Origin: an uncultured Muribaculaceae bacterium
GTDB taxonomy: Bacteria > Bacillota_I > Bacilli_A > RF39 > UBA660
DNA: 35,065 bases
NCBI GenBank assembly: GCA_964553435.1
Contig: CAZKKM010000003.1
Coordinates: forward strand, 1 to 35,065
Direction: 5' to 3'
Translations under genes and position numbers: made by a program
Shown: positions 4,036 through 31,361 of the stretch, in pieces
How positions within the stretch are numbered: position 1 is the stretch's first letter
Layout: each line of letters begins with the position of its first letter
The notes under the pieces: generated by a model
The model's input: only the letters and a program-made list of their open reading frames with translations
The model's database searches: none
What the model was told of the DNA's origin: nothing

Positions 4036-4064
4036 TTGACAATCTCAGTCGATTACGATAAAAT
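4036..4064 (+). promoter_or_regulatory. near-consensus SigA-type promoter for pilin-like gene 1
   Basis: TTGACA (4036-4041), a 17-nt spacer, then TAAAAT (4059-4064). The -10 box overlaps the track's TTG start at 4064, which favours the ATG at 4100. Confidence 0.6.
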
Positions 4065-4099
4065 TGATTTATAAAGTTAAGAAAGAGAGAGATGTTTTT

Positions 4100-4477
4100 A
4101 TGAACGATTTGATACTTTTTGCAGCAGGAAGTGGCGATTTCTGCAGAAATACTCACGAAATACTCGGCCTGGTCGGATGGGCACTTACGATATTTAAGGT
4201 CGTAATTCCGCTCATCATCATCGCCTTGGGATTGATCGATTTGGGTAAAGCAGCTGTTTCCAGCAAGCCTGAGGAAATCAAGAAGAGTGCTACTAGCCTC
4301 GTATACAGATTGGCCGGAGGTATTTTGATATTCTTTATTCCGACAATCATCATGTTGGTTTTCGGATTTGTCGGAAGATTTGGAGATGCACAAAACCAAC
4401 TCGACTGGGATGTCTGCTATAAATGTATCACGGCGCCTTGGGATGGCATATGTGCCAACGCAAAGAGCGATTATTAA
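4100..4477 (+). CDS. VirB2/TrbC-like (pilin-like) small membrane protein, paralog 1
   Basis: 125 aa. It has two hydrophobic helices (FKVVIPLIIIALGLIDLG and GGILIFFIPTIIMLVFGFV) separated by a short K-rich loop (SSKPEEIKKS), which is the VirB2/TrbC pilin architecture. The C-terminal tail carries CYKC-x8-C. It is paralogous to 4551-4931, 10635-11141 and the C-terminus of 5001-6197. Confidence 0.65.
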   Translation: MNDLILFAAGSGDFCRNTHEILGLVGWALTIFKVVIPLIIIALGLIDLGKAAVSSKPEEIKKSATSLVYRLAGGILIFFIPTIIMLVFGFVGRFGDAQNQLDWDVCYKCITAPWDGICANAKSDY

Positions 4478-4480
4478 CGT

Positions 4481-4509
4481 TTGACAAAATTTATGTAAAT
4501 AAGTATACT
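4481..4509 (+). promoter_or_regulatory. near-consensus SigA-type promoter for pilin-like gene 2
   Basis: TTGACA (4481-4486), a 17-nt spacer, then TATACT (4504-4509). It overlaps the track's TTG start at 4509. Confidence 0.6.
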
Positions 4510-4550
4510 TGAAATATAGTATACTTTTTATATGGAAAGGATGGTGTCGT

Positions 4551-4931
4551 ATGATATCGCTCGCCGTGAACAATTTTTGTCTCGAATTATCTCCCGTCTT
4601 GAAGATGATAGGAGATGCTCTGAACATCTTCAAAGTGACTCTTCCTCTCGTACTCATCATTCTTTGCATCTTCGACATCGGCAAGGCCGTGATTTCGTCC
4701 AAATCTTCCGACGTCAAAAAGAACATTGTAAACTGCGCCAAAAAACTGGCCGTATGCGTTCTTGTCTTCTTCATTCCGACGATATGTATGATCGTCTTCG
4801 GATTCGTCGATGCCTTCGACGAAATAACAAAAAAATCCGGACTCGACTTCGATGTCTGCTACGACTGCATGTTCAATTCATCGGGAGAAAATTGCAAATC
4901 AGCTGTCGAAATCGCCGAACTCACTTATTGA
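4551..4931 (+). CDS. VirB2/TrbC-like (pilin-like) small membrane protein, paralog 2
   Basis: ATG at 4551 follows GGAAAGGATGG. It has the same two-helix plus basic-loop layout (FKVTLPLVLIILCIFDIGKAVISSKSSDVKK...VLVFFIPTICMIVFGFV) and a C-terminal CYDC-x8-C. Confidence 0.65.
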   Translation: MISLAVNNFCLELSPVLKMIGDALNIFKVTLPLVLIILCIFDIGKAVISSKSSDVKKNIVNCAKKLAVCVLVFFIPTICMIVFGFVDAFDEITKKSGLDFDVCYDCMFNSSGENCKSAVEIAELTY

Positions 4932-5000: not shown

Positions 5001-6197
5001 ATGAAAAACATTCTTAAAAAGACCCTTTTATTCGTGACGATTTTTACGTTCGGACTCGCCTCAGTCGAAGCCTACGACGTCGGTGGCACGAAAACTGTCG
5101 ATGATATGGTCGATAGCAAAACAGCCGTTTTGGTTTGTGAATATGCCAACAGCAGCGGAACCGTCTTCAATAGGATTTATTATATGTTCGAAAGTTCGGA
5201 CGGTTCTTGGACACCTGGACCGTGGGATGTCTATTATCGCAAAGGTGAAAAAAAGAACGACTTCTATCATATCGCGAATGCTTTCACCGGTGATATCATC
5301 TCGCGCGGTAGCTTCTACGAAGCACTCCAAAGGGATCAGGTCAGCTACAATTCTGACGAAAACCGCATGCCTAACGAAATGGAAGCTGTTTTCACATGTC
5401 CGACATATGCCTTCACCGACTTGGACAACTTCGATGAAATTTGCTACGGAGACAATCAAAGTTGTGGAGACAACTTCGAGTATGGTCCGTTTACACTTAC
5501 CAAGAATGGCAACACCATATTTGAAAAAATTGACAACTATATAGTCGCCTTGTTGGACAACGACGAATTCGTAAGCGCTATTAGAAACAAGACGGACATA
5601 ACGAACACACTCCGCCAAAGGGCGAGGAATTATGTCATCACGACTTGGCCACTAAGTTCGAATTACAAGATGCCGGCCTTCATCGATAACTATCTCAATA
5701 ACTTAGCTGTCGATGAAAACAATCCCAAATTGGCTGAAAGTTTCAACACTCTAAAACAAAAAGCCGTACAAGCTGTCGAAAATGAAGTGCGAATGGGTGT
5801 AAAAACCGAAGAAGAAGCGACACAAGAAAAAGCCGAAATCGAACAGTTGGAAGTGAAAGACATCATCAAAGTCAAAAGTGAAATGTCGGCCGATTTGAAC
5901 ATAAACAGCGGGACCGACTGCAATAGCATTTTGGGACAACAGATGAGCGAAATCGTCAAGAATCTATTCACCTTTATTCAATATTTGGGACCTATATTAG
6001 TCGCCGTTTTCTCGATAATGGACTTCATCAAAGCCGCCGCATCGGGAGACGAAGGACAAATGAAAAAAGCATCGGAAAAACTCATGAAGAGAATAATATG
6101 TGGAATACTTTTATTCTTCGTCCCATTGATTTGTAGTTTCCTCATGGATTTGGGTGGACTGACGATGCCCGACATCTGTATAAGACAGAAAAGATAA
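5001..6197 (+). CDS. secreted protein with a C-terminal VirB2-like pilin module (fusion)
   Basis: The signal peptide is MKNILKKTLLFVTIFTFGLASVEA|YD. A Cys-containing domain of about 250 aa and a Glu/Lys-rich linker follow. The C-terminus (IQYLGPILVAVFSIMDFIKAAASGDEGQMKKASEKLMKRIICGILLFFVPLICSFL) aligns with the three small pilin-like proteins. Confidence 0.7.
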   Translation: MKNILKKTLLFVTIFTFGLASVEAYDVGGTKTVDDMVDSKTAVLVCEYANSSGTVFNRIYYMFESSDGSWTPGPWDVYYRKGEKKNDFYHIANAFTGDIISRGSFYEALQRDQVSYNSDENRMPNEMEAVFTCPTYAFTDLDNFDEICYGDNQSCGDNFEYGPFTLTKNGNTIFEKIDNYIVALLDNDEFVSAIRNKTDITNTLRQRARNYVITTWPLSSNYKMPAFIDNYLNNLAVDENNPKLAESFNTLKQKAVQAVENEVRMGVKTEEEATQEKAEIEQLEVKDIIKVKSEMSADLNINSGTDCNSILGQQMSEIVKNLFTFIQYLGPILVAVFSIMDFIKAAASGDEGQMKKASEKLMKRIICGILLFFVPLICSFLMDLGGLTMPDICIRQKR

Positions 6198-6229
6198 AAA
6201 TTAGCTGCTTTGTCCGCTAATTTTTTTTT
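6196..6229 (+). terminator. rho-independent terminator
   Basis: The stem pairs aaaaattagc (6196-6205) with gctaattttt (6216-6225), the loop is 10 nt, and the T-run continues to 6229. Confidence 0.7.
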
Positions 6230-6292
6230 GGCTTATTTTTTTCTCTCGCACATATACTTTAGTGAATTGCCGTAAGAAAAGAGGATAAATTC

Positions 6293-6862
6293 ATGCTATA
6301 TAAAATCGTTCGTCCATTTGTCAAACTTTTCGTGAGGCTCTGCTTTCATCCCAAAATAATAAATGCAGAAAATATCCCTCCGTCTGGTCCAGTAATTCTT
6401 GCTGGCAACCACACGAGTAATTTCGATGCTTTACTTCTCATGTCGACGACGAAGCGACCGATATCGTTCTTGGGAAAACACACACTTCCGCGTTTCTTCG
6501 TAAAATATCTTCGTGTCATTCCTGTCGACCGCACGAAATCTCGCAATCCAGAAGCATTGAGGCTTGCTCGCAATGTTCTAAAAGGAGATAACATCGTCGG
6601 GATTTTTCCCGAAGGAACGATCAACAGAACTGCCGAATTGACGATGCCTTTCAAGATGGGTGCAGTATCTCTAGCGGCCAAAAACTCGGTGCCTTTAGTT
6701 CCTTTCATCATTACCGGGAAATACGCATTATTTAAAGGAAATTTGAAGATAAAATTCCTACCTCCTCGGCAAATTATGAAAGACGACATTCAATACGAAA
6801 ATGCCCGCCTCATGGCCGACATTGGAAGTAACATAGAAAGGGAAAAGAATGAAAACAACTAA
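6293..6862 (+). CDS. PlsC-family (lysophospholipid/1-acyl-glycerol-3-phosphate) acyltransferase
   Basis: AAGAGGA RBS. LPLAT motifs are present: block I AGNHTSNFD (HX4D), VIPVDR, and FPEGT. 189 aa. Confidence 0.8.
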   Translation: MLYKIVRPFVKLFVRLCFHPKIINAENIPPSGPVILAGNHTSNFDALLLMSTTKRPISFLGKHTLPRFFVKYLRVIPVDRTKSRNPEALRLARNVLKGDNIVGIFPEGTINRTAELTMPFKMGAVSLAAKNSVPLVPFIITGKYALFKGNLKIKFLPPRQIMKDDIQYENARLMADIGSNIEREKNENN

Positions 6863-8564
6863 ATCTTTTGATTGGTCATCGAAAAAGAAAACCGATTCGC
6901 TGAAAATTTCTGCCGCATCTATGTACGATTATCTCGTCGATGCAGTAGGGGATGACACCGACTATTTTGCACTCAACTATTTTGGTAATCGCATCACTTA
7001 CTCGAAGATGTTCAGAACCATAAATCTTCTATCCAAATGTCTTAAAGAATCTGGTATAAAAAAAGGAGACATCGTGACTGTCTGTCTTCCGAATATGCCT
7101 GTAGCGGTAGAACTTTTCTATGCTATAAACAAAATAGGGGCCGTCGTCGACATGGTTCATCCTCTATCATCTCCGGCCGAACTGAAGAACTTTCTTCAAA
7201 AAAACCACTCGCATATTTTGTTTCTTTACGATGCAAACTATGAAAAAATATCTAAAATTATCTCTTCGACCGACGTCAACAAAGTCATCCTCATTTCTGT
7301 TTCGGAGGATATGCCCAAACTTACGAAGACGATATACAATCTTACTAAAGGCTTACGTCTATTAAAATCTCCCAAAGAAGATGCGACTTATATCATGTGG
7401 AAAGACTTTGTAAATCTCGGTTACTCGGTGCGAAACTTCAAGTCGCCTAAGATATCCAAAGACGACATCGCCGTCATCCTTCACAGCGGAGGAACTACAG
7501 GCACACCAAAAGGAATAATGCTTACCAATTATAACTTCAATGCTCTCGCCGTACAGGGAGCTGTGAACGTACAAAACGTCGAAGCCAAAGACAAGATTTT
7601 GACAATTCTGCCACTTTTTCATGGATTCGGCTTGGGTGTATGTGTCCATTGTCCTCTGACTCTAAAAGTAGAGGTCATTCTTCATCCCGAATTCACTCCC
7701 AAAAGTTTTGCTTCCATACTGAAAAAGTACACCCCTCAAGTTCTAGCTGGAGTTCCAACTCTATTCGAATCGATGCTCGCAAATCCCATCTTCTCCAAAA
7801 TAGATTTATCTTCGTTAAAATACATGATAAGCGGAGGAGACAATTTGCCTGTCGAACTCGAACATAAAATTAATTCTTTCCTTCAAAGACATTCTGCCCA
7901 AATAAAATTGACAAAAGGATACGGTATGACAGAAAGCCTCGCCGCGACCATCTTCACATTTCCAGACTCTAACAAACCGGGTTCGATAGGTACTCCCATG
8001 CTCGGCAATACAGTTCGCATATGTCGGTTAGGTACGAACGAAGAGGTGTATGCTAAAACGGTCGGAGAAATATGCGTCCATGGTCCGACGATCATGAAAG
8101 GTTACTATGATGAAGAAAAGGAAACGGCCAAAATCTTACATCTTCACGACGACAAAAAAATATATCTCCACACTGGCGATTTGGGATACGAAGACGAAAG
8201 AGGACTAATTTATTTCACCGGTCGCCTCAAGCGCCTCATCGTCTCGAGCGGTTTCAACATCTATCCCGCTCAGATCGAAGAAGTTTTGATGAAACATAAA
8301 AATGTCTCTTCTTGCTGTGTCATCGGCATCCCTCATCCTTACAAAATGCAAGTTGCCAAAGCATATGTCGTTTTAAAAGACGGTCGACCGACCGATAAAC
8401 TTAGAGCTGAGCTGCGACTTCTTTGCAAAGAAGAACTGGCCTCGTACTCACAACCCAAAGAATATGAATTTGTCGAAAGTTTGCCGAAGACCATTTACAA
8501 TAAAACGGATTATAAAAAACTAGAAGAAGAGGAGAAACGAAAATATGAAGAAAGAAAAAAGTAG
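6849..8564 (+). CDS. AMP-dependent acyl-CoA/acyl-ACP synthetase (long-chain fatty-acid ligase family)
   Basis: Adenylate-forming motifs are present: HSGGTTGTPKG (A3), GYGMTES (A5), TGDLGY (A7) and GRLKRLIV (A8). It overlaps the upstream gene by 14 nt. Confidence 0.85.
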   Translation: MKTTKSFDWSSKKKTDSLKISAASMYDYLVDAVGDDTDYFALNYFGNRITYSKMFRTINLLSKCLKESGIKKGDIVTVCLPNMPVAVELFYAINKIGAVVDMVHPLSSPAELKNFLQKNHSHILFLYDANYEKISKIISSTDVNKVILISVSEDMPKLTKTIYNLTKGLRLLKSPKEDATYIMWKDFVNLGYSVRNFKSPKISKDDIAVILHSGGTTGTPKGIMLTNYNFNALAVQGAVNVQNVEAKDKILTILPLFHGFGLGVCVHCPLTLKVEVILHPEFTPKSFASILKKYTPQVLAGVPTLFESMLANPIFSKIDLSSLKYMISGGDNLPVELEHKINSFLQRHSAQIKLTKGYGMTESLAATIFTFPDSNKPGSIGTPMLGNTVRICRLGTNEEVYAKTVGEICVHGPTIMKGYYDEEKETAKILHLHDDKKIYLHTGDLGYEDERGLIYFTGRLKRLIVSSGFNIYPAQIEEVLMKHKNVSSCCVIGIPHPYKMQVAKAYVVLKDGRPTDKLRAELRLLCKEELASYSQPKEYEFVESLPKTIYNKTDYKKLEEEEKRKYEERKK

Positions 8565-9147
8565 CAAAAGAGAATGGGGTTACCGCCTTTTAAAGCCGAT
8601 CCTCGCTCCAATTTTTTACCTTTATTATCGCCCGAAGTTGATAAATAAAAATGTGATACCTAAAAGAGGACCGATTATCTTTGCTGGAAATCACAAACAC
8701 ATCCTGGATCAATGTCTCGTCATCATCTCTACTAATAGAGTCGTCCATTACATGGCCAAAAAAGAATACTTCGAAGGTCCCTTTGCGTGGTTTTTCAAAC
8801 TGACAGGTACTATTCGTGTCGACCGCGAAATCCACGATGAAGAAGCCAAAGAGCAGGCTTTGGACGTTTTAAAATCCGACCGCGCCTTGGGCATATTCCC
8901 AGAAGGAACCCGCAACAAGACGGACGAATTGTTGTTACCTTTTAAAAGAGGCTGTGTTTCTTTCGCTCAAAAGACTAATGCGACCATCGTTCCATTTGCC
9001 ATAAAAGGCGAATACAAATTTCATAAGTCGAATCTCAGAATAGTTTTCGGAGAACCTTTCACCGTAGCACAAGATGCAAACCTGCAAGAAGCCAACGAAC
9101 ACTTGCGAAACACGATTGCCGATTTATTGACAGATGAAAAACTGTGA
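8545..9147 (+). CDS. second PlsC-family acyltransferase
   Basis: AGNHKHILD (HX4D), IRVDRE, FPEGTRN. GAGGAG RBS. It overlaps the ligase gene by 20 nt. Confidence 0.8.
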   Translation: MKKEKSSKREWGYRLLKPILAPIFYLYYRPKLINKNVIPKRGPIIFAGNHKHILDQCLVIISTNRVVHYMAKKEYFEGPFAWFFKLTGTIRVDREIHDEEAKEQALDVLKSDRALGIFPEGTRNKTDELLLPFKRGCVSFAQKTNATIVPFAIKGEYKFHKSNLRIVFGEPFTVAQDANLQEANEHLRNTIADLLTDEKL

Positions 9148-9238
9148 GAGATTTCGAGTAAAAATAACCTCAAGATAATAACAGGGGTTTATTTTTAAGG
9201 CTTTATAAATCGAACAGATTGTGGTATCATATCACTAG

Positions 9239-10528
9239 GTGATGATGATGAAAAAGAGAACATTGTTCTTAAGCATAGTCTTGACTATCGCGACATTTAT
9301 TATAGGTACCAGCCCAGTCTCAGCTTTGATCGACAGCTGGGTAGGTGGCACGATAATCGTAAAATGGGTAGATTACGGCGACCCTAGAGGTGAAAGACCT
9401 GATTCTATCGATTTGGTCGTCGGAGATAGACTCTATACGAATCAACATCAGACGATTACTCTAAATGTCCAAGATGCCCAAGTCACGAACAATTCGAAGG
9501 ACAAAGAATTCGATTCTCCTGTGACCGAATGGAAATTTAGCAAAGGAAACTACGATACGTTTTTTAAGCATTACGGTGATAAAGCGGGTTGTTTGTATGA
9601 ATACAGTTATATAGAGAATTTGAGTGATTTGGGCTATGCTGAACTCGATAGTCATATAACTGGCAATTTGCATCCGGCAAAATTTTCGATGTCGGGAACC
9701 CTTTTGGAAGATGCTGGAACCCTCGTCATAACACTGATTAAAGATACTCTGACGACCAAAAACTTGACTGTCAAATATATCGACGGAGATCTTCGCGACG
9801 GTAACGACGTAAGAAAATTGGAGTTCGCGATAAGAGGAGAGAATGTCGCGGACCCGATCGCACAAAATGCATACTATAAATTTAATATCGAACCCGAAGA
9901 TACTATAAAGATAGATGGCATAAGAGATACGTATACGAAGAGTATAATAATATCGGCTTCAGATGCTTATCAAACGGGAAATCCGATGATCGATTACGTT
10001 TTCGACGAAGACACTCACAATATCGATGGACGAACGATAAACTATGAAATCGACGGAAACGATATACTGGTGACAGTCGATTATCGAGCTAAGACGAAAA
10101 ATGTTTCGATAGAAATAGAATGGCAAGATGGTGAAGATAAATTGGGATTGAGACCATCCTCTTTGATCTTGAAGGCATACGATCAAAAAGGCAACCTCGA
10201 GAATACTGTGTCTTTATCCAAAGATCACAATTGGATTACAAAAGAAACTTTATATGAAAATATGAAACATTCTGACGGCACGGCCATCGAATACGATATG
10301 AAAATAGAGGACGAAGGCGAATACGAGTATAGAACTATTAAAGATGGGGACAACTACAAAATAATAGCCAAACTAAAAGGACACGAAGACGAAGGTGAAA
10401 AAATTATAGATGATCCTAAAAAAGAAAACAATCCTAAGACTGGTATTTTTATGGGACAGTACATTTTGATGTTCGTCATAAGCCTAGTCGGTTTGATTGG
10501 TCTTTTTACAAGCATCAAAAAAGACTGA
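9239..10528 (+). CDS. cell-wall-anchored surface protein with CnaB-type repeats and an NPKTG sorting signal
   Basis: The start is ambiguous among GTG 9239 and ATGs at 9242, 9245 and 9248. The signal peptide is KKRTLFLSIVLTIATFIIGTSPVSA. CnaB-like signatures are 'IVKWVDYGDPRGERPDSIDLVV' and 'IEIEWQDGEDKLGLRPSSLILKAY'. At the C-terminus, NPKTG (10430-10444) is followed by a hydrophobic stretch and KKD, forming a sortase sorting signal. Confidence 0.8.
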   Translation: MMMMKKRTLFLSIVLTIATFIIGTSPVSALIDSWVGGTIIVKWVDYGDPRGERPDSIDLVVGDRLYTNQHQTITLNVQDAQVTNNSKDKEFDSPVTEWKFSKGNYDTFFKHYGDKAGCLYEYSYIENLSDLGYAELDSHITGNLHPAKFSMSGTLLEDAGTLVITLIKDTLTTKNLTVKYIDGDLRDGNDVRKLEFAIRGENVADPIAQNAYYKFNIEPEDTIKIDGIRDTYTKSIIISASDAYQTGNPMIDYVFDEDTHNIDGRTINYEIDGNDILVTVDYRAKTKNVSIEIEWQDGEDKLGLRPSSLILKAYDQKGNLENTVSLSKDHNWITKETLYENMKHSDGTAIEYDMKIEDEGEYEYRTIKDGDNYKIIAKLKGHEDEGEKIIDDPKKENNPKTGIFMGQYILMFVISLVGLIGLFTSIKKD

Positions 10529-10542
10529 CAGATGAAAAAATG

Positions 10543-10564
10543 AAAGAGAGCGATCTCTTTTTTC
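10543..10564 (+). terminator. weak rho-independent terminator
   Basis: The stem pairs aaagaga (10543-10549) with tctcttt (10554-10560), the loop is gcga, and TTTT follows. The stem is A/T-rich, so the terminator is weak. Confidence 0.4.
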
Positions 10565-10607
10565 TTTGGCTTCAAGCCAAATATTTCTTTATTATCTCGA
10601 CCGATTA

Positions 10608-10616
10608 TGTTATAAT
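10608..10616 (+). promoter_or_regulatory. extended -10 promoter element for the MPF operon
   Basis: TGtTATAAT at 10608-10616 with no good -35 box. It lies inside the track's upstream extension (10566), which favours the ATG at 10635. Confidence 0.4.
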
Positions 10617-10634
10617 TTTGTTAATGGTGAAATT

Positions 10635-11141
10635 ATGAAAAAAATTGTATTATGTTTTTTGTTGCTTTTGACGAGTGTATTTGTGAATACGACCGCTGTC
10701 GAAGCAAAAATTATGCCTTTTTATGATGATGTAATCGAGAAGTTCGATGACGTGGAAATTCCATCTACGGACTATCATCGTCCCGACAACTTCAATAGAA
10801 ACTGTGCCGATTTCGCGAGCACGATCAAGATGGCCGGTGTCTGCTTGTTCTTTGCCAAAATCATCTTGCCGCTCATCATCATCGCGACGGCTTCCATCAA
10901 CATGATGAAGGTCGTGAGCTCTGGTAAACAAGACGAAATAATGAAACAGGCCAAAAAGGCAGGAGTATCCCTCATTGGAGCAATCCTCGTCTTTTTCTTG
11001 CCGACCATCATCTATACCATCTACAGCTTCATCGATAATTTCGAAGAAAACAGGACGAACGATTCAAAAATATGCTATGCCTGTGTCTTCAAGCCTTACG
11101 GCAATTTGTGCACACAATATGCCACATATTACAAAGAGTAG
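10635..11141 (+). CDS. VirB2/TrbC-like (pilin-like) protein with a signal peptide, paralog 4
   Basis: ATG at 10635 follows GGTGA. The signal peptide is MKKIVLCFLLLLTSVFVNTTAVEA. The two-helix module (FFAKIILPLIIIATASINMMKVVSSGKQDEIMKQAKK...AILVFFLPTIIYTIYSFI) is followed by CYAC-x8-C. It sits immediately upstream of the VirB6-, VirB3- and VirB4-like genes. Confidence 0.7.
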   Translation: MKKIVLCFLLLLTSVFVNTTAVEAKIMPFYDDVIEKFDDVEIPSTDYHRPDNFNRNCADFASTIKMAGVCLFFAKIILPLIIIATASINMMKVVSSGKQDEIMKQAKKAGVSLIGAILVFFLPTIIYTIYSFIDNFEENRTNDSKICYACVFKPYGNLCTQYATYYKE

Positions 11142-11153
11142 GAGGAAAACGAT

Positions 11154-13271
11154 ATGCTGAATCAATTGATGTTAGTAGGTGGGAATTGGTTTTTGGATAT
11201 CTTCAAAATGTTGACACATATGCTGGATCAGGGAATATATTTTCTCGCCCAATGTGCCTACCAGGTATTCTATTTCATCGCCAACGCGACCATTTTGAAC
11301 GATACCATAGTACGAAATTTCACTCTTAGAATATACACTCTCATCGGTATAGTCATGGTCTTTGTCTTGGCTTTCAACCTCTTGAGTTACATCGTCGACC
11401 CCGATAAGATTACCGATAAAAAAGTTGGAGCATCCTCCTTCGTCAAGGATGTCATTTTGGCTATAGCCATCATTTCTCTTTCTCCGATGCTGTTCACCAA
11501 ATTATATTCGCTTCAATCGGCTATCCTGACTTCGGGTGTCATCGAAAATCTCATCTTGGGAGGTACGACGGATGAAAACTTTAAAACCGAAGATGAATGG
11601 AAAAACAATCAAGGAAGTAGTAAAACTTATGCCGAATACATGATTGCCAATGGTGGCAACAACATGGTGGCCTCGGTGTATGTCGCCTTCCTGTATCCGG
11701 CCGATGGGTCGTTTACCGCATTGGATTGTGGCAATTCCAATCACGAAAAAGCCGCGACCTACGCAGATTATTGTGAAGCCTATCAAAAGGTCAAAGAAGG
11801 CGAATCGCTGAGCGCATTCGACGATTTCATAACGAACGAAGAATACAATTTCACTCCATTCTTGACGACCGTCGCCGGTATCGTTCTATTGTTCTTCATG
11901 TTATCGTTTTGTATCAATCTGGCCAAGCGAGTCGGGAAGATGGCTATCGTTCAACTCATCGCTCCAGTTCCAGTCACCCTGGAACTGTTGCCCAATAAGA
12001 AGGGCCTGCGTGACAATTGGTTGAAGACCCTTGCCAAAGTCTATTTAGAAGTCTTCTTCTACATGGCTGTCATGTTCTTGGTCATACTTCTCATATCTTT
12101 GGTTCCGGGAACCATTCAAACACTGCTCGGTAACTCCGGCGCCAATACCTCGACTGCCGGAACGGCAATATTCACCACCCTGACATCCGGCCCGGTCAAA
12201 CTTTTTGCAACAGTCATACTCATCTATGGACTCTTGATGTTCGGTAAAGAAGCACCTCAGATGCTCTTCGATTTGCTCGGTATCAAGAGTACCGGTATCA
12301 TCAAAGAAGCTGCAAACAGAGCTCTCGTCATGGCTGGCTCTACCAAAAATGCTTTGGAAGCAGGTGGAGGAAACTTCATACGAGGTATAACCGAAAACAA
12401 GGGAGTAGGAAGAGTAGGAGGTGCTCTATTCGGAGCAGGTTCGGCCATTACTCGAAACTTATGGGCTGGAAGAAATGCCAAAAGTTGGGCCGACACCGAG
12501 AAGAACAGAAAACAAATCAACGAAGGTATCACACGTCGCCGTATCAACAGACAGGCATACAACTTCGAACATGGTGGCTGGGCTGGTGGAGTAGCAGGTC
12601 ACATGAGCGACGGCTTGGGTTCTATGAACAAGAGTTTCAAATCGGCAACTTCTATTGCTTTGGGCTATCAAAAGAAAAAGGAACAGGAAACCGTATTTGG
12701 AGACTTGAAGAAAAAAGCAAATGCCGGCATAATGGATATCATCAAGAACGATTCTACATATCAACTTCTGAGAGAAGAATATTTGCGTACAGGAAGTACA
12801 ACAGCCAAAAACAATATGGAAGCCCGTGTTAAAGAATTGATGAAGAATAACACGAGTAAGTTGAAAGTCGGTTTTGGAGAAATAAACGGCTTCGTCGGTT
12901 CTCACCAAAATGTCGTGGGAATGTCCAAAACTCAATTGGATCCTAATAAATTCATCGATGCTTCTACCGGTAAATTTGATGCAACGAAAATGTTCAAGTT
13001 AGATAGCTCTGGAAATATCGAATTCGATAGCGAAGGTAATGTAAGCTTCAATACTGATATAAACGATGTCGTCAAAGGTGTCGATGTGAAAGAAACTTAT
13101 GTCGACTTGACTGGAACAAGAGTTACTAAGACCGATAAAGTTCCTACTCATCGTGCCAACGATTTGGAATATCAAAATCAAAAAGCACGTGAAACCATCA
13201 ATGAACGCGTTCGCGAAGAAGCAAGGAAATCGGCTCAAGATAAACAGGCAGAAAACAAGCCTAAAAATTAA
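11154..13271 (+). CDS. VirB6/TrbL-like polytopic conjugal-transfer membrane protein with a long hydrophilic C-terminal domain
   Basis: Strong RBS (GGAGGAAAA). It has at least six hydrophobic segments in the first ~400 aa and then a ~300-aa polar, Gly/Lys-rich tail. The position between the pilin-like and VirB3/VirB4 genes matches PrgH/Orf15/ConG-type proteins. The assignment rests on topology and synteny only. Confidence 0.6.
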   Translation: MLNQLMLVGGNWFLDIFKMLTHMLDQGIYFLAQCAYQVFYFIANATILNDTIVRNFTLRIYTLIGIVMVFVLAFNLLSYIVDPDKITDKKVGASSFVKDVILAIAIISLSPMLFTKLYSLQSAILTSGVIENLILGGTTDENFKTEDEWKNNQGSSKTYAEYMIANGGNNMVASVYVAFLYPADGSFTALDCGNSNHEKAATYADYCEAYQKVKEGESLSAFDDFITNEEYNFTPFLTTVAGIVLLFFMLSFCINLAKRVGKMAIVQLIAPVPVTLELLPNKKGLRDNWLKTLAKVYLEVFFYMAVMFLVILLISLVPGTIQTLLGNSGANTSTAGTAIFTTLTSGPVKLFATVILIYGLLMFGKEAPQMLFDLLGIKSTGIIKEAANRALVMAGSTKNALEAGGGNFIRGITENKGVGRVGGALFGAGSAITRNLWAGRNAKSWADTEKNRKQINEGITRRRINRQAYNFEHGGWAGGVAGHMSDGLGSMNKSFKSATSIALGYQKKKEQETVFGDLKKKANAGIMDIIKNDSTYQLLREEYLRTGSTTAKNNMEARVKELMKNNTSKLKVGFGEINGFVGSHQNVVGMSKTQLDPNKFIDASTGKFDATKMFKLDSSGNIEFDSEGNVSFNTDINDVVKGVDVKETYVDLTGTRVTKTDKVPTHRANDLEYQNQKARETINERVREEARKSAQDKQAENKPKN

Positions 13272-13288: not shown

Positions 13289-13612
13289 ATGAATGGCAAT
13301 TATTTGATTCCGGCAAACTCGAAAAAGTCGGAAATGATACTGGGATTATTTACACCGGTCGATTTGATACTGTTCTCGAGTGGTGTGGGACTGACAGTCG
13401 TGTTGGTTCTCGCCCTCGCGGCCCGTACCAGTTCGGTCACGGCGATGATATTGATGTTGCTGCCCGCACTCATATCGGCATTTTTGGTCTTCCCTGTACC
13501 GAATTACCACAACGTGCTACAGCTCATAATCAATATATACTCGTTCTTCTTCGTAAGACAAAGAACGTACAAATGGAGAGGTTGGTGTTTTAAAGATGGC
13601 AGTGACAAATAA
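13289..13612 (+). CDS. PrgI/VirB3-like small membrane protein
   Basis: 107 aa with two TM segments (ILGLFTPVDLILFSSGVGLTVVLVLAL and MILMLLPALISAFLVFPV). It lies directly upstream of VirB4 and overlaps it by 17 nt, the canonical VirB3/PrgI/TcpE position. Confidence 0.55.
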   Translation: MNGNYLIPANSKKSEMILGLFTPVDLILFSSGVGLTVVLVLALAARTSSVTAMILMLLPALISAFLVFPVPNYHNVLQLIINIYSFFFVRQRTYKWRGWCFKDGSDK

Positions 13613-14144
13613 ATCGACTGAAGATTGGCTTCCGATCAAAGCCATAAATAATGGAATGATTTTATTGGACAACGGTTATTTGGTGACCGGAGTCAAAATA
13701 GAACCGAAAAACATCTTCATCTTGGATCAGGATGTTCAAAACAGTGTCATCTTCTCGCTGCGCAACTTCTACAACACGATCGACTACGAATTCTGGCTCA
13801 TCTCAGCCGGCCGTCCGGTCGACATAAACGTTTACTTGGCGAACTTACAAGTACAATACAACAATACGAATAACCAGCACATCAGAAAGCTTCTGATGCA
13901 AGACATATCCAAAGCCAACATGTTCATGAGCACACAGTTGAACGCAGTCGACACCGAATATTTCATACTGTTCAAAGAAAAAAAACCTGAAATCATTCAA
14001 AAAAGACTACAGACCCTGATAGGTGGGTTGGCAAATTGCACGTTGAACAGCAAACAAGTATCGAATGATGACTTGCGCATGCTATTAGATAACTTCTTCA
14101 ACGGTGCTGAAAGTTCGAGATTTGGGGCGGTGACGAGCGCATGA
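13596..14144 (+). CDS. VirB4-family ATPase, N-terminal fragment (separate ORF)
   Basis: 'EDWLPIKAINNGMILLDNGYLVTGVKIEPKNIFILDQDVQNSVI..F' matches the N-terminus of monoderm VirB4 proteins (PrgJ/TcpF/Orf16 type). It ends at TGA 14142-14144, inside an ATGA overlap with the next ORF. Confidence 0.7.
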   Translation: MAVTNKSTEDWLPIKAINNGMILLDNGYLVTGVKIEPKNIFILDQDVQNSVIFSLRNFYNTIDYEFWLISAGRPVDINVYLANLQVQYNNTNNQHIRKLLMQDISKANMFMSTQLNAVDTEYFILFKEKKPEIIQKRLQTLIGGLANCTLNSKQVSNDDLRMLLDNFFNGAESSRFGAVTSA

Positions 14145-15925
14145 GTTTAAAAAGTGAAATAGCCCCTAAGGGCATAGAATGGAAACCAACTTCTTTCCGT
14201 CTCGGGGACAAATATTGTACGATTTTGACGGTCATAAGTTATCCTAAGTTCATCGATCATGGCTATTTGGCCAACATCACGAACATTCCAGGAGTCAAAG
14301 TCGTCATCAAGCATTTGCCGATAGATTTTGCCTTGATGAGAAAGATGATAGATAAGGAGATAGCGGATTTAAAAGAGCGCTTCCAAAAGGAAAATGACCA
14401 CACCTTACAAGAGAGAATTCGTCAGGACTACGAATCGCTCGAAGGCTTCATTCAACAGCTTGCCGCTTCCAGTGCCAAGATTTTCGACTTTCAAATGCAC
14501 ATTCTCTTGAGTGGAGACACCGAAGAAGAACTCGAAAATCGCAAACTCGAGATGAAAACATACATGACAGGAATGGATATGAGGGGGATACCTCTCATGT
14601 TCGAGCAGGAAAAAGTTCTAAAATCTATGATTCCGATTTTCCCTAAACAGGACATCGAAGACAGAATAGGAACTCCGATTCCATCGAACACCATCGCGGC
14701 TATGTATCCGTTCGTCTTCGATTCGATCAAAGATCCGGGACTCAGTACACTTCTCGGAGTGGATTTCTCGGGCGGAGTCGTACTTTTCAACCAGTTCCTC
14801 TATCAAATCAAAAAGGAACACAACCGCAATAACGCGAACATGCTCATATTGGGTGCTTCTGGTTCAGGTAAATCGACCGCAGCAAAACTTCTTTTGAGAA
14901 ATCATTTCCGCAACGAATACAAGATAGTTGCCATCGACCCAGAAGGCGAGCTAGAAGAAATGTGTAAGAACTTTAATGGCGACTTCATCAACCTTGGAAA
15001 AGGTGGACAACTCGGAATGATCAATCCTTTGGAAGTGATCGTCGACGAAGACGAAGAGGACCTCGACAAAGGACTAAGCTATGCCGTTTTGACACGCACA
15101 TTGTCTACACTCAAAGCTTTCATGACCTATCTGTACCCCGATATAGAAGACGACGTTCTAACATTGTTCTCGGACGTCGCCCAAGATACATACAAAAGAT
15201 TTAATATCGATTTCAATACGGATTTTAGAAAATTCAAAAGTACAGATTATCCTACATTCGACGATATCTATGCTACGATCAGAGGTAAAATACTATCCAT
15301 GCCGGAGCATACTCGCGAACGCGATGTCATGGAAAGACTCGAACTGAAGATACGACCTATCACCAAAGAACTTCGTTACTACTTTAACGGTCATACGACG
15401 ATCGAACCGGAAAGCAACTTCGTCGTCTTCAATATAAGAGAACTGATGAATTCCGATTCTGCTATCAGAAATGCATTGTTCTTCAATATTTTGAAGTATT
15501 CATGGAGTCTATGCCTCGACAAAGATATAAACACCGTTTTGTACGTCGACGAAGCTCACGTCTTACTCGGAAGTCAGAATGAACTAGGTGCAGAATTCCT
15601 TGCTCAAATTCAAAGACGTAGCCGCAAATACAACACGGGAACGATCATCATAACCCAACAGCCGACAGATTTTGCGGCAGATAAGATCATCATGCACGGC
15701 AAGGCGATATTCGACAATGCCAGTTACTACTTGGCGATGGGACTCAAAAAACAAGCCGTCGAAGACTTATCAAAACTCGTCGATTTGAACGAAAATGAAA
15801 TGGAATCGATAAAACGGTTCAGCCAAGGACAAGGTCTGTTCGTCTGCGGTTCTCGTCGAATGCAGATAAACGTCGTCCTCACACAAGAAGAACTCGATTC
15901 GTTCGGAACGGGTGGAGGATTATAA
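14141..15925 (+). CDS. VirB4-family conjugal-transfer ATPase, main part
   Basis: Walker A is LILGASGSGKST and Walker B is VLYVDEAHVLL. 'RRSRKYNTGTIIITQQPTDF' is also present. The middle-domain start 'IAPKGIEWKPTSFRLGDKYCTILTVISYPKF' is typical of VirB4. Confidence 0.85.
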   Translation: MSLKSEIAPKGIEWKPTSFRLGDKYCTILTVISYPKFIDHGYLANITNIPGVKVVIKHLPIDFALMRKMIDKEIADLKERFQKENDHTLQERIRQDYESLEGFIQQLAASSAKIFDFQMHILLSGDTEEELENRKLEMKTYMTGMDMRGIPLMFEQEKVLKSMIPIFPKQDIEDRIGTPIPSNTIAAMYPFVFDSIKDPGLSTLLGVDFSGGVVLFNQFLYQIKKEHNRNNANMLILGASGSGKSTAAKLLLRNHFRNEYKIVAIDPEGELEEMCKNFNGDFINLGKGGQLGMINPLEVIVDEDEEDLDKGLSYAVLTRTLSTLKAFMTYLYPDIEDDVLTLFSDVAQDTYKRFNIDFNTDFRKFKSTDYPTFDDIYATIRGKILSMPEHTRERDVMERLELKIRPITKELRYYFNGHTTIEPESNFVVFNIRELMNSDSAIRNALFFNILKYSWSLCLDKDINTVLYVDEAHVLLGSQNELGAEFLAQIQRRSRKYNTGTIIITQQPTDFAADKIIMHGKAIFDNASYYLAMGLKKQAVEDLSKLVDLNENEMESIKRFSQGQGLFVCGSRRMQINVVLTQEELDSFGTGGGL

Positions 15926-15945: not shown

Positions 15946-18033
15946 ATGGGGCTTTTTGACAAACGCAAAAAAAACAAAAACGATGATCGGCCCGAAGAAA
16001 AAGATGGTGCAATTCTTGCTACCGCAATGTCTTTTTGGCAATCACTCCCTGTTCTCGTTAAATTGAAAATAATAGGAGTGGTTGCGGCCGTTGCCGTCGT
16101 CATCATCTTGATGGTCGGTGTACTCGGTGCCATACCATCTCTTTTTTTAGATTATTCCGACGATGCTCAAAATACCAAAGATATACCCGATGAGTATCGC
16201 GAATATTGGGCCGAATTATGTGAAGATGAAGATGCCGGATGTACGGAAGAACAGATCGCCGCGGCCAAGAAACTGAAAGAATCCCAAACGGCATTTTATA
16301 CGAAGCTCGATTCCTTAGTCAAAAAAAACAACATCACGGCCGAACAAAAATACATCGTTTTGACGACAGTCTTCTATAATTATCAAATAGACGACTTCAC
16401 GGCCGGTGCCTTCGACATCGACGACAATGACGATATAAACTATGACTCTTCCAACAATGGAGAAAACGTCTACCAAAGAGAGAAAGATACCCTCAAGGAA
16501 TTGATAAAACAATTCAAAGTCAATACGGCCTTTTGTGAATATACGACCAAGAACGATGCCGGAGAAGATGTCAAAAAAACGGAAACTCTCCGAAGTCCTT
16601 CCGGCTCGACTTACTCGTTCAATTTTTTCGACAATGTCAAATTCACTTTTGGTATTCTGCCAGCTGCCGAAGGCTTTGCCGAAGCCAAGGAAGCATGCGA
16701 AGCTTTGACATCTGGACGCGTATATATGGAAGTATCTTCATCATCGGCTGCCTCGATAGACGGATACTATCGTTACCTAAAGGAGTCGGACTTCTTGGAC
16801 GATAGACCGATGAATGCGCCGGCATATTTAGAACACGCAAAAAAATACGGTTTAAGCGAAGACATTTCTTCGTGGCCCGAGGAAGAGAAGATTTTGGTAC
16901 GCGAAGCAATCATAAAAGATATCAAGTCGATCGTCGCAGCCCATACACCGACTCAAAACAAGAATATGACCTATTTGGCCGTCGGTCATGACACAGCTTA
17001 CTGGTGGCCGATAGGTTCGTCCGAAGTCATCGAATCGAACGGCAAATATTATGCTACGGGCACACCATATCCCAACGTCGTAACTTCAGAAGGTGGAGGT
17101 CGTATCGATCCGATTTCGGGAAAACCGGCGACTCACAGTGGTATGGATATTGCTCCGATAGGAGCTGCACCTGGAGTCGTACCGGTCATTGCCGCCAAAT
17201 CGGGTACGGTCGTCTTTCCGGATGCTTCGACTTCCGTCGGATACGGAAACGGCACGGGAATAGGTGGTTCGACTTACGGAAATTATATTCGCATTCAACA
17301 TACCGATGGTAACTATACACTCTATGCCCATCTGCATGCGAACAGCATACTCGTCCGTACGGGTGATAGTGTCGAGCAAGGACAAGTCATTGCCTACGTC
17401 GGAAACTCCGGTCGGTCGACTGGAACCCACTTGCACTTCGAAGTCCGCGAAGGGCAAGACAGTTACTACAGTGTCACCGACCCTCGCAAATACATATCCG
17501 AAGAAAACCCTCGTCCACAATCATCCGTATCCCAAGACTTCGTAGCTTGGTTCGATGCCAACTTCGAAGGCTCGACTGGAACGGATTCCACCGGAACAAA
17601 ATACTTGGTCAAAGACGTCGGCGATGGAGTTAGAACTGTCGGTCCGGGTGTCACTTTGGATGCTCAAAGAAATAAATTCCTAGAACGTGGAATAAATGTC
17701 GACGAATATCCGAACGGCACTTATATAGATATCGAGATTGTCGATTCTATCAAAAGTCAAATTCTCGAAGAAGCTGCCAGCTCGATCGAAACTACCATTT
17801 CCAATGCAGGATTGACCCTCGAAAAAGAAAAGATCGAAGCGCTCGTCGTATTCAAATACAACGTCGGAAATATAAGCGGCTTTACCGAAGCTTACAAAAA
17901 ATACGGCGACACTCAGGCTCTTTACGATAATTACTTCGGTCAATACGTTCACGTCAAAGGCGAAGTTTGGCCGGGACTTGTAAAACGCAGACAAAAAGAG
18001 TGGGAGTTATTCCACAATCATGTCTATGTCTAG
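15946..18033 (+). CDS. membrane-anchored bifunctional cell-wall hydrolase: M23 metallopeptidase plus GH24 (phage/T4-type) lysozyme domain (VirB1 functional analog)
   Basis: The N-terminal TM is LVKLKIIGVVAAVAVVIILMVGVLGAI. M23 motifs are HSGMDIA (~17134), NYIRIQH...YAHL and GNSGRSTGTHLHFEV (~17400-17448). The C-terminus 'FEGSTG...YLVKDVGDGVRTVGPGVTL...FKYNVG...VKRRQKEWELF' fits the GH24 lysozyme pattern. Confidence 0.8.
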   Translation: MGLFDKRKKNKNDDRPEEKDGAILATAMSFWQSLPVLVKLKIIGVVAAVAVVIILMVGVLGAIPSLFLDYSDDAQNTKDIPDEYREYWAELCEDEDAGCTEEQIAAAKKLKESQTAFYTKLDSLVKKNNITAEQKYIVLTTVFYNYQIDDFTAGAFDIDDNDDINYDSSNNGENVYQREKDTLKELIKQFKVNTAFCEYTTKNDAGEDVKKTETLRSPSGSTYSFNFFDNVKFTFGILPAAEGFAEAKEACEALTSGRVYMEVSSSSAASIDGYYRYLKESDFLDDRPMNAPAYLEHAKKYGLSEDISSWPEEEKILVREAIIKDIKSIVAAHTPTQNKNMTYLAVGHDTAYWWPIGSSEVIESNGKYYATGTPYPNVVTSEGGGRIDPISGKPATHSGMDIAPIGAAPGVVPVIAAKSGTVVFPDASTSVGYGNGTGIGGSTYGNYIRIQHTDGNYTLYAHLHANSILVRTGDSVEQGQVIAYVGNSGRSTGTHLHFEVREGQDSYYSVTDPRKYISEENPRPQSSVSQDFVAWFDANFEGSTGTDSTGTKYLVKDVGDGVRTVGPGVTLDAQRNKFLERGINVDEYPNGTYIDIEIVDSIKSQILEEAASSIETTISNAGLTLEKEKIEALVVFKYNVGNISGFTEAYKKYGDTQALYDNYFGQYVHVKGEVWPGLVKRRQKEWELFHNHVYV

Positions 18034-21437: not shown

Positions 21438-21466
21438 TTGTATTTTATTTAAAATTATGGTATAAT
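21438..21466 (+). promoter_or_regulatory. promoter of the rimP-nusA-infB operon
   Basis: TTGTAT (21438-21443), a 17-nt spacer, then the extended -10 TGgTATAAT (21458-21466). The track's ATG at 21465 lies inside the -10 box. Confidence 0.55.
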
Positions 21467-21486
21467 GAAGTCATTAAGCGGAAAGG

Positions 21487-21514
21487 AAGTGGGGATTGAC
21501 AACCCACTTTTATT
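21487..21514 (+). promoter_or_regulatory. leader hairpin plus U-tract (possible attenuator) upstream of rimP
   Basis: The stem pairs aagtggg (21487-21493) with cccactt (21503-21509), the loop is 9 nt, and TTaTT follows. It lies between the predicted TSS and the rimP RBS (GGAGG, 21523-21527). Confidence 0.35.
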
Positions 21515-21530
21515 GATGATTGGAGGAATT

Positions 21531-21785
21531 ATGAACGAAAAACTTGATAAAATTAGAAATGCCATCACAAAACCGATGGAAAAGATGAACATAATCGTAG
21601 ACGAAATAACATATGTGACAGAAAACGGCTACAACTTTTTGAAGATTACTTTAGATAAAGTGAATGGACTCGATATGGATACGATAGTCGAAGCCACGAA
21701 CGTCATCAACCCCATCGTCGACGAACTAGATTTGATAGAAAAAGAATACATACTGGATATATCCAGCAAAGAAAGAGGTAATTGA
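21531..21785 (+). CDS. rimP: ribosome maturation factor RimP, unusually short (N-terminal domain only)
   Basis: GGAGG lies 4 nt upstream of ATG 21531. The gene sits immediately 5' of nusA. 'YNFLKITLDK..GLDMDTIVEATNVINPIVDELDLIEKEYILDISS' matches the RimP N-domain up to the conserved (L/I)(E/D)(V/I)SS motif. The ORF then stops, giving 84 aa against a usual ~150. Confidence 0.65.
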   Translation: MNEKLDKIRNAITKPMEKMNIIVDEITYVTENGYNFLKITLDKVNGLDMDTIVEATNVINPIVDELDLIEKEYILDISSKERGN

Positions 21786-29624: not shown

Positions 29625-30232
29625 TGGGACAAATACAAAAAAGATACTTATATTCTGCTCTTTTGAGTGCTGCCTTTTTCATAATCGTATATGGCTTTGC
29701 TGACTTTAATATCGTCTTGTCCGTTCTGTTGACGATCGTCATCTATTTGGGAGGTATCTTCCTCTTCAAAGAGAAAGACTTGAGAACACTGACTCCGAAA
29801 TACGTCGACGATTATTATTTTATGGCATCCAAATGTGCAGCACGTGCGAGCCAAACGGCAGATGAAGAGATAAAAGCATATGTCGACAAAATAACGACCT
29901 ACACGGACGAAATACTCTTGAGCCTCACGCAAAGGCCGAAGAAAGTGGAACAGGTTTTTGATTTCTTCGATTACTATCTAGATATCACCAATAAGATACT
30001 GATGAGATATAATCTGTTGAAAAATCACGAAAATCACGATGAAAAAGAGCACGTCTTTCTGGATAATACAAAAAATTATCTCGAAAAGATAACCGACATG
30101 TTCTCTCGTCAACTGTCAAACATGAAAGAAGCGCGCATGCTAGATATCGAATCCGAAATACGCATGTTCGAACATACGATAGGTCTCAAGAAGACCGATA
30201 TAGAAGTGGGTGAAAATGATGAACTTAAATAA
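29624..30232 (+). CDS. two-TM membrane protein, tentatively XpaC-like (5-bromo-4-chloroindolyl phosphate hydrolysis protein family)
   Basis: It has a 1-nt overlap (TGATG) with the upstream gene. Two N-terminal TM helices are followed by a helical cytoplasmic region ('FDFFDYYLDITNKILMRYNLL'), which matches my recollection of the XpaC layout. The family call is unverified. Confidence 0.5.
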   Translation: MGQIQKRYLYSALLSAAFFIIVYGFADFNIVLSVLLTIVIYLGGIFLFKEKDLRTLTPKYVDDYYFMASKCAARASQTADEEIKAYVDKITTYTDEILLSLTQRPKKVEQVFDFFDYYLDITNKILMRYNLLKNHENHDEKEHVFLDNTKNYLEKITDMFSRQLSNMKEARMLDIESEIRMFEHTIGLKKTDIEVGENDELK

Positions 30233-31346: not shown

Positions 31347-31361
31347 AAAGTAGGGAAAATT

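Follow-up and report, generated by a model that had tools for sequence, protein, structure and literature searches.

Why should genes for fatty-acid activation and lipid acylation lie among the pilin genes of a type IV secretion system (T4SS)? The question is raised by a stretch of 35,065 nucleotides (nt) that takes up nearly all of contig CAZKKM010000003.1 of assembly GCA_964553435.1 (the window, by which this whole stretch is meant), where a gene for an adenylate-forming ligase is flanked by two short acyltransferase genes, here termed AT1 and AT2, to form a triad at positions 6293 to 9147. An earlier note on this DNA had considered that the triad might supply or tailor the lipid of the secretion pilus, or repair lysolipids, and had named a housekeeping pathway for exogenous fatty-acid incorporation as the mundane alternative; it is the latter that is favoured by the comparative data. 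The triad is read here, with a probability that we would put at roughly 0.65, as a self-contained and vertically inherited membrane-glycerolipid cassette that uses scavenged fatty acids, and not as a component of the T4SS.

Organisation of the cassette

The three genes of the cassette are the following.

6293-6862, + strand: AT1, acyltransferase assigned to the PlsC/LPLAT family; 189 aa, ATG start; PF01553
6849-8564, + strand: predicted FadD-type long-chain fatty-acid ligase (ANL superfamily); 571 aa, ATG start; PF00501 and PF13193
8545-9147, + strand: AT2, acyltransferase assigned to the PlsC/LPLAT family; 200 aa, ATG start; PF01553

AT1, the ligase and AT2 are real genes and not chance open reading frames (ORFs), with hundreds of orthologues. 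In the ORF list AT1 and the ligase gene overlap by 14 nt and the ligase gene and AT2 by 20 nt, which matches the translational coupling described in the earlier note; purine-rich strings that resemble ribosome-binding sites (RBS) precede the internal starts of the ligase and AT2 genes, and the coupling is also tight in the relative L001, where the overlaps are 4 and 23 nt. The description of two HX4D/FPEGT acyltransferases on either side of an adenylate-forming fatty-acid ligase is borne out by Pfam and by the reading of the motifs, and the placement of the triad between pilin genes and the T4SS core agrees with the Pfam and NCBIfam assignments of its neighbours.

Distribution of the cassette

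The occurrence of the triad was followed from two sides, with VirB4 of the T4SS and with the ligase as anchors. VirB4 was found to be 75-96% identical among the 119 clusters listed, many of which lie on contigs of 100-600 kb, while a VirB4-alignment scan of metagenomes yielded 80 further loci with a VirB4 that is 69-76% identical; the VirB4-anchored loci were examined as far as their flanks had been fetched, which was 10 kb at most on either side. The T4SS block is kept in more than 90 related loci. In the fetched DNA of all 84 loci from L087 to L170 (VirB4 69-91% identical), AT1, the ligase and AT2 gave no tblastn match; the same search did recover PrgI, the TraC-like protein, VirB6, the pilins and VirD4. 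The 10-kb flanks of L087 (VirB4 91%), L088 (82%), L089 (81%) and L090 (75%) contain no acyltransferase or AMP-binding genes, the order of the T4SS genes being unchanged, and the triad is also absent from L176 (VirB4 90%) and L177 (87%).

The carriers of the triad are the window, L001-L003, L171 (VirB4 92%), L172 (90%) and L173 (96%), which represent five of 91 T4SS lineages, all with a VirB4 at least 90% identical to that of the window; the triad is absent from the other 86. None of the 85 lineages with a VirB4 below 90% possesses it, and L087 and L176, at 91% and 90%, are likewise without it. Three protein searches suggest a few more carriers of the same sub-clade. The MAGs that hold the embedded triad include GCA_964472425.1 and GCA_037193285.1. 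In all five carriers the slot is identical, behind the upstream pilin genes and directly before the last pilin gene and VirB6. The rimP-nusA flank of the window is found without a triad in L088 (where it reads rimP-nusA-infB) and in L177, and L172 carries the triad with rimP downstream. As the 86 lineages without the triad keep the same pilins, VirB6, VirB3 and VirB4, the machine does not need it. The survey for a recurrent PlsC/ligase/PlsC triad in homologous T4SS loci, which the earlier note had proposed, was thus run and came out negative (5/91), and the functional link between triad and T4SS is unsupported, as the five lineages are all close relatives and the cassette also occurs without a T4SS.

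The latter was established from the ligase side, in a scan that took one genome per GTDB species. Homologues of the ligase number in the thousands, the nearest being 63% identical. An orthologous group at 52-57% identity is present in approximately 20 species represented by gut metagenome-assembled genomes (MAGs) from rabbit, goat, sheep and human, which are labelled at NCBI as Bacilli, Mollicutes, Erysipelotrichaceae or Mycoplasma sp., and the next tier, at 41-45% identity, is found in MAGs labelled as Clostridia. The ligase-anchored loci were analysed by tblastn of all window proteins, together with ORF maps and annotated contigs. A complete AT1-ligase-AT2 arrangement was found in L004 (on the 1.03-Mb contig ERZ28751742:contig_12937), L013, L017, L022 and the Clostridia-labelled L026, while L007 and L025 hold partial triads that are cut by contig ends. 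No T4SS genes were detected in the full 10-kb flanks of the triads of L004 and L017, nor in the shorter, contig-limited flanks of those of L013 and L026. Among the ligase-anchored loci the triad lies inside a T4SS only in the closest relative, L001-L003 (63% identity). No conserved neighbourhood of lipid genes surrounds the free-standing triads, whose neighbours differ at every locus, and the cassette is therefore without a fixed chromosomal position.

Some of these loci have features of their own. At 4-204 of L022, some 9 kb upstream of its free-standing triad, there is a weak pilin-like match (31% to a 137-aa pilin, E 8.5e-6), with a DNA polymerase III alpha-like gene between the match and the triad, and a T4SS locus may adjoin beyond the fetched DNA. 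A second, divergent paralogue of the ligase (46% identity) lies directly upstream of AT1-ligase-AT2 in L017 (6738-16561), where the group is flanked by a FabG-like short-chain dehydrogenase/reductase and a 1411-aa BcrAD/BadFG plus DUF2229 CoA-enzyme activase and may represent an extended cluster for acyl-CoA metabolism. The AT2 orthologue of L004 (11742-12315) is split over two frames, owing either to a frameshift (possibly a pseudogene) or to a long-read assembly error.

The ligase

The ligase matches the Pfam domains PF00501 (AMP-binding, E 1.8e-74) and PF13193 (AMP-binding_C, E 2.9e-21), and its best NCBIfam matches are all models of long-chain-fatty-acid--CoA ligases, with E values of 2e-104 and weaker, all below their cut-offs. 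The best score is 349.6 bits as against a cut-off of 705 (NF006181), while the FadD model NF006523 gives 268 bits as against 884; as the protein falls below every curated cut-off, it constitutes a distinct subfamily. Its alignment with E. coli FadD shows 30% identity over 565 aa, that is, over the full length (220 bits, E 1e-68), and takes in the region of the fatty-acyl-CoA-synthetase signature (WLHTGD...SGFNVYP): YLHTGDLGYEDERGLIYFTGRLKRLIVSSGFNIYP. With the ligase half of E. coli Aas it shares 27% identity over 290 aa (96 bits, E 5e-25), and the sequences nearest to it in the PDB belong to CoA ligases (4-coumarate-CoA ligases and Archaeoglobus FadD-1). By these matches the ligase is of the FadD type and not of the Aas type. 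Acyl-CoA and acyl-acyl carrier protein (ACP) synthetases of this ligase family cannot be told apart by sequence alone; the acyl carrier is most likely CoA, and may also be ACP.

No tblastn match to E. coli LplT (at E 1e-4) was obtained in the window or in 115 loci of the clade, which amount to 1.83 Mb. The portrayal of the triad as Aas split into parts is apt as an analogy of domain content; it fails as a statement of identity, as FadD scores 220 bits and Aas 96, the three ORFs are unfused, the scores lie far under the Aas cut-offs and LplT was not found.

The acyltransferases

Both acyltransferases score well above the cut-off of PF01553 (23 bits), AT1 with 90.9 bits (E 7.7e-26) and AT2 with 88.1 bits (E 5.7e-25), and are by these Pfam matches bona fide members of that family. 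The HX4D motif reads NHTSNFD in AT1 and NHKHILD in AT2, block II reads IPVDR and IRVDR, respectively, and both elements are kept in all aligned orthologues of either protein. In block III the two differ, as AT2 has FPEGTRNK, with the canonical FPEGTR, and AT1 the non-canonical FPEGTINR. The form FPEGTIN(R/K) is found throughout the AT1 family, with I110 and N111 nearly invariant among 36 homologues and the arginine displaced by two residues. AT1 and AT2 are 38% identical to one another, their orthologues form two distinct conserved groups, and each is approximately 27% identical to E. coli PlsC. Since both keep the catalytic blocks, they are probably active, with differing roles.

The NCBIfam matches of the two proteins are consistent with such a division. 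AT1 is matched best by PRK08633, an Aas-like acyl-ACP--phospholipid acyltransferase model (E 1.2e-24, 86.2 bits, as against a cut-off of 1221), followed by TIGR00530 AGP_acyltrn at 81.9 bits (E 3.1e-23), below the cut-off of 102.95, while the Aas model NF005959 gives 32.6 bits as against 886. The best match of AT2 is TIGR00530 itself (E 7.8e-26), at 90.4 bits just below that cut-off. The OlsF, OlsA and GlsA models of NCBIfam match AT1 and AT2 weakly (E 1e-6 to 5e-5). Among PDB sequences T. maritima PlsC (5KYM) is the only match of either protein (AT1 E 3e-10, AT2 E 6e-9). An AlphaFold (AF2) model of AT1 built with 36 homologues (pLDDT 83.7, pTM 0.82) has 5KYM as its best fold neighbour, with a TM-score of 0.69-0.71, followed by PatA and LpxM, all of them enzymes of the LPLAT superfamily, and displays a single N-terminal helix at residues 2-17; as modelled, the fold of AT1 is the alpha-beta LPLAT fold and is PlsC-like.

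Proposed role of the cassette and its host

In the route that we propose, the FadD-type ligase would adenylate free long-chain fatty acid and hand it to a thiol carrier, and the two differentiated PlsC-family acyltransferases would draw on this acyl-thioester in the esterification of glycerolipid acceptors. AT2, in which FPEGTR is canonical, would most likely be the 1-acyl-glycerol-3-phosphate (sn-2) acyltransferase, and AT1, with FPEGTIN and an Aas-like profile, most likely an sn-1 acyltransferase acting on glycerol-3-phosphate (G3P) or on a 2-acyl-lysolipid, so that phosphatidate or phospholipid could be made from exogenous fatty acid by the two jointly. The cassette would, in one sub-lineage, have landed in a permissive intergenic slot of the T4SS, upstream of the last pilin gene before VirB6, and would have been retained there since.

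Such a route would suit the probable host. A homologue of AT1 with 47% identity is annotated from Candidatus Coprovivens, which is GTDB genus UBA11963 of the order RF39, family CAG-1000 (Gilroy et al., PMC8035907), and the relatives, uncultured and genome-reduced gut Bacilli, appear to be RF39-like. The names under which the related MAGs are filed at NCBI agree with that order, as does the reduced character of their loci. Nearly all RF39 genomes have been reported to lack the whole fatty-acid biosynthesis pathway, and their membranes have been proposed to be built from exogenous fatty acids, with FakAB-PlsX-PlsY-PlsC as the suggested mechanism (Nayfach et al., PMC6784871). Given the reported absence of fatty-acid synthesis in RF39, a cassette for exogenous fatty acids would be core metabolism.

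Homologues of FASII (type II fatty-acid synthesis), plsX, plsY, acpP and Fak were not found in the sampled loci of the clade, a sample of 1.83 Mb that is biased toward two loci and thus uninformative on whole genomes. The literature matched on plsX/plsY/plsC does not mention RF39. The RimP of the window (21465-21785) has 106 aa and matches the N-terminal RimP domain only, with 84-aa versions in L088, L172 and L177; a truncated RimP of this kind is typical of a reduced genome.

History and transcription of the embedded copies

In a neighbour-joining tree of the ligases, which carries no support values, the triad loci L026, L022 and L017 are basal and the embedded copies group with the non-embedded L004 and L007, from which it follows that the cassette existed before it became associated with the T4SS. 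Among themselves, the embedded ligases share 54-69% identity, and the capture is therefore old. As the embedding is old within the sub-clade, the triad may be co-regulated locally with the pilins.

A comparison of the window with L001 revealed an uneven divergence, as VirB4 (94%), the TraC-like protein (96%), a 118-aa protein (85%) and PrgI (80%) are conserved, while AT1 (48%), the ligase (63%), AT2 (69%), the 398-aa pilin protein (43%) and the 173- and 154-aa proteins (53-56%) have diverged. The contrast between VirB4 at 94% and the ligase at 63% is ascribed to VirB4 being ultra-conserved and not to a fast evolution of the triad; to judge by its identities, the ATPase core of the T4SS is under exceptional constraint. 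An accelerated evolution of the embedded ligases, which would be a sign of neofunctionalisation, was considered and found no support, as their identity to outgroups is 40-43.5% as compared to 40.5-44.8% for the others, with no clear shift in rate. A recent horizontal acquisition of the triad was likewise discarded, as its GC content, its GC content at third codon positions (GC3) and its third-position skews fall inside the spread seen for the housekeeping and T4SS genes nearby (GC3 of 0.42-0.44 for the triad and 0.38-0.44 for nusA, infB and truB).

Variation is seen in the slot that separates AT2 from the last pilin gene (9148-10565 in the window). The window has a Cna_B adhesin there, L173 has a gene for a PD-(D/E)XK transposase-like protein of 323 aa (5087-6457), and in L001, L171 and L172 the slot is empty; it has the look of a hot spot for insertions within the T4SS locus.

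A hairpin of -9.7 kcal/mol that is not significant against shuffled sequences (z = -1.06) can form in the 95-nt gap upstream of AT1, and a scan of this gap for sites that resemble a promoter in 9 or more of 12 consensus positions found none. The hairpin after AT2 is AU-rich and no better than shuffles (z -0.16), and no riboswitch or other RNA element was matched at the Rfam gathering threshold in the whole window. The sequence of the window is present in rat-gut metagenome runs only, and in no metatranscriptome; the RNA runs listed have no more than the species label in common with it.

Alternative explanations

A link to the T4SS that is confined to the sub-clade is decidedly improbable. The cassette, captured inside the pilin cluster of a domesticated T4SS, would be transcribed together with the pilins and would provide or modify the pilin phospholipid, or re-acylate the lysolipids left by pilin extraction, so that lipid supply or lysolipid repair would be coupled to the biogenesis of the filament; if this were true, it would be the first T4SS locus with lipid-acylation enzymes of its own. 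The triad is indeed co-oriented between pilin paralogues, across a gap of 95 nt without a convincing terminator or promoter, it holds the same position in five lineages whose ligases are 54-69% identical despite rearranged flanks of the locus, and pili with a stoichiometric, 1:1 association of pilin and phospholipid are established for F, T and R388 (PMC5018250; bioRxiv 10.1101/2022.09.25.509369; 10.1101/2024.03.04.583355). This is, however, countered by the lack of the triad in 86 of the 91 homologous lineages, by the occurrence of the cassette away from any T4SS and its being ancestral to the embedded copies, by the absence of a clear rate shift in the embedded ligases relative to outgroups, and by the unrelated cargo, adhesin or transposase-like, that the same slot accommodates. 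Nor is the association of pilin and lipid universal, as the RP4 conjugative pilus is reported to be lipid-free (PMC13434634), and the absence of the term "acyltransferase" from the 15 best-ranked of 63 full-text matches on T4SS pili with pilin-bound phospholipid counts against such a link as well.

The main biochemical rival, which we regard as unlikely, is a housekeeping function of the Aas or Lands-cycle type, in which the ligase would make acyl-ACP or acyl-CoA and the acyltransferases would re-acylate 1-acyl and 2-acyl lysophospholipids, scavenged from the gut or arising from membrane damage, with no de novo acylation of G3P. It could explain why the Aas-like PRK08633 is the best NCBIfam match of AT1 (E 1.2e-24), why AT1 is without the arginine of the canonical EGTR, from which E. 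coli Aas (FPEGRIT) deviates too, and why the N-termini of AT1 and AT2 are short like that of the Aas acyltransferase domain, lacking the first 35-55 residues of T. maritima PlsC (TmPlsC). The type of the ligase, FadD and not Aas, speaks against it, as do the failure to find an LplT-like flippase beside any triad or in the 1.83 Mb of clade loci and the canonical LPAAT motif set of AT2, with its best match to TIGR00530; moreover, a fatty-acid auxotroph would still need de novo G3P acylation, to which two differentiated acyltransferases are suited. That the cassette acylates something other than a glycerophospholipid, be it an aminolipid (OlsA/GlsA-like), a glycolipid or lipoteichoic anchor, or a lipid product that is secreted, is highly improbable: the matches to the OlsF, OlsA and GlsA models, and the fact that PlsC is followed among the fold neighbours of AT1 by PatA and LpxM, acyltransferases of glycolipid and lipid A, would be in its favour, but the Ols and Gls matches fall far short of those of the PlsC and Aas type, and no OlsB/GlsB-like N-acyltransferase, glycosyltransferase or nonribosomal peptide synthetase/polyketide synthase partner is adjacent to the triad, either in the window or at those other triad loci that were examined.

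Several observations weigh against the reading of the triad as a self-contained glycerolipid cassette. Sixteen of the orthologous ligases are solitary, without an adjacent acyltransferase, and hence the three genes are not obligatorily linked. The persistence of the embedding in five lineages, whose ligases have diverged to 54-69% identity while the flanks of the T4SS were rearranged, would also fit a selection for linkage, and the lack of a clear promoter or terminator between pilin gene and triad makes co-transcription with the pilins possible. Behind the assignment to RF39 stand one named homologue and the labels that the MAGs bear at NCBI (Bacilli, Mollicutes, Erysipelotrichaceae or Mycoplasma sp.), and a host without FASII, PlsX/PlsY, Fak and a second PlsC is presumed from the RF39 literature.

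Comparison with known systems

By analogy, the cassette would functionally resemble the acyl-CoA route of E. coli through FadD and PlsB/PlsC more than Aas/LplT. With the former it has in common a FadD-family ligase, HX4D acyltransferases of the PlsC family and the logic of activating the fatty acid and then esterifying G3P. It differs in that its genes form one translationally coupled cassette, in that the sn-1 step would be performed by a small PlsC-like enzyme in place of the large PlsB of E. coli, and in that the host is of a Gram-positive lineage and apparently FASII-less, so that the cassette would be the main and not an auxiliary route. With Aas and LplT of E. coli it shares the combination of an LPLAT acyltransferase with an adenylate-forming ligase, as well as the profile and altered block III of AT1, which are Aas-like; unlike Aas, the proteins of the window are unfused, with two acyltransferases and a ligase closer to FadD, and the LplT partner was not found.

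The likeness of AT1 and AT2 to T. maritima PlsC (5KYM), the structural prototype for LPAATs of bacteria, lies in the aligned HX4D and FPEGT motifs and, for AT1, in the best fold match of its model. Both proteins are, however, 45-60 residues shorter, their alignments beginning at approximately residue 57 (AT1) and residue 69 (AT2) of TmPlsC, and the AT1 model has a single N-terminal helix in the place of the two-helix membrane motif reportedly described for TmPlsC by Robertson et al. in 2017.

FakAB, PlsX, PlsY and PlsC constitute the usual route of the Firmicutes. The cassette would serve the same purpose, exogenous fatty-acid incorporation, in the same phylum, but with an adenylating ligase that yields a thioester where the Fak route has a kinase that leads to an acyl-phosphate. 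As for the F, T and R388 pili, which hold membrane phospholipid in a 1:1 ratio, the resemblance is that VirB2-type pilins flank the triad, and the difference is that the triad is missing in 86 of 91 relatives of the T4SS of the window. The lipid of conjugative pili is drawn from the bulk membrane, and we know of no T4SS that encodes a fatty-acid ligase or PlsC-type enzymes of its own.

The secretion system and other features of the window

The genes and the intergenic gap that surround the cassette are listed below.

4064-4477, + strand: pilin-like paralogue, small transmembrane (TM) protein; upstream context, outside the cassette
4509-4931, + strand: pilin-like paralogue, small TM protein; upstream context, outside the cassette
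5001-6197, + strand: 398-aa protein with a C-terminal T4SS_pilin domain (PF18895, E 1.9e-7, above cut-off); outside the cassette
6198-6292, + strand: gap of 95 nt that separates AT1 from the gene of the 398-aa pilin-domain protein; holds an AU-rich hairpin, then a U-run and an AGAGGA RBS
9239-10528, + strand: surface protein with a Cna_B domain (PF05738, E 1e-4, 23.1 bits as against a cut-off of 22.3) and a C-terminal TM anchor
10566-11141, + strand: fourth pilin-like gene; T4SS core context
11154-13271, + strand: VirB6-like; T4SS core, by Pfam/NCBIfam
13289-13612, + strand: PrgI/VirB3-like; T4SS core, by Pfam/NCBIfam
13596-14144, + strand: TraC-like 182-aa protein; T4SS core, by Pfam/NCBIfam
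14141-15925, + strand: VirB4; T4SS core, by Pfam/NCBIfam
15946-18033, + strand: hydrolase with M23 and lysozyme domains; T4SS core, by Pfam/NCBIfam
Between the M23/lysozyme hydrolase and VirD4, + strand: two small ORFs; T4SS core block
19091-21355, + strand: VirD4; T4SS core, by Pfam/NCBIfam

The upstream pilin-like paralogues match one another in the loci of relatives (tblastn). Directly 3' of VirD4 the window continues with the housekeeping block rimP-nusA-ylxR-infB-rbfA...truB, and the T4SS is thus chromosomal; no relaxase-type domain was detected in the window ORFs scanned. This T4SS is the more unusual object of the window, being chromosomal and without a relaxase that can be recognised. 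Its VirB4 keeps 69-96% identity throughout the clade, in which over 90 chromosomal loci are known from uncultured gut Bacilli, on contigs of up to 0.6 Mb. In the window, L088, L172 and L177, rimP-nusA-infB follows immediately downstream of the locus. The system has the look of one that is domesticated and vertically inherited, and not that of a mobile element. A literature search for a T4SS in RF39 returned nothing.

Just upstream of the T4SS block, at 597-2501, the window encodes a 634-aa protein with an N-terminal TM segment and at least four DUF285 repeats (Mycoplasma-type, BspA-like leucine-rich repeats; E 8e-78), which is probably a surface adhesin; LRR_5 proteins occur in related loci. 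On the other side, 3' of truB (28020-32303), there follow a fusion of SBP_bac_11 with a von Willebrand A domain, a member of the Halogen_Hydrol family, a 378-aa protein without an assigned function and an SPFH/Band-7 protein. A weak SPFH match is also found approximately 1.7 kb downstream of the triad in L013.

Significance

The secretion system works without the triad in nearly all of its relatives, and the triad therefore provides no general handle on the question of pilin lipids. Its interest lies with the host. Gut Bacilli of the RF39 type are abundant, uncultured and reported to be without fatty-acid synthesis, and the route by which they make their membranes is not established. The enzymes described here are new members of known families, and their arrangement may be the missing route of fatty-acid incorporation in RF39-like bacteria, for which a compact set of one ligase and two small acyltransferases offers a testable candidate. 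Such a route would be a thioester pathway and not the previously assumed FakAB/PlsX/PlsY pathway, and knowledge of it could help in the design of media for the cultivation of RF39-type bacteria.

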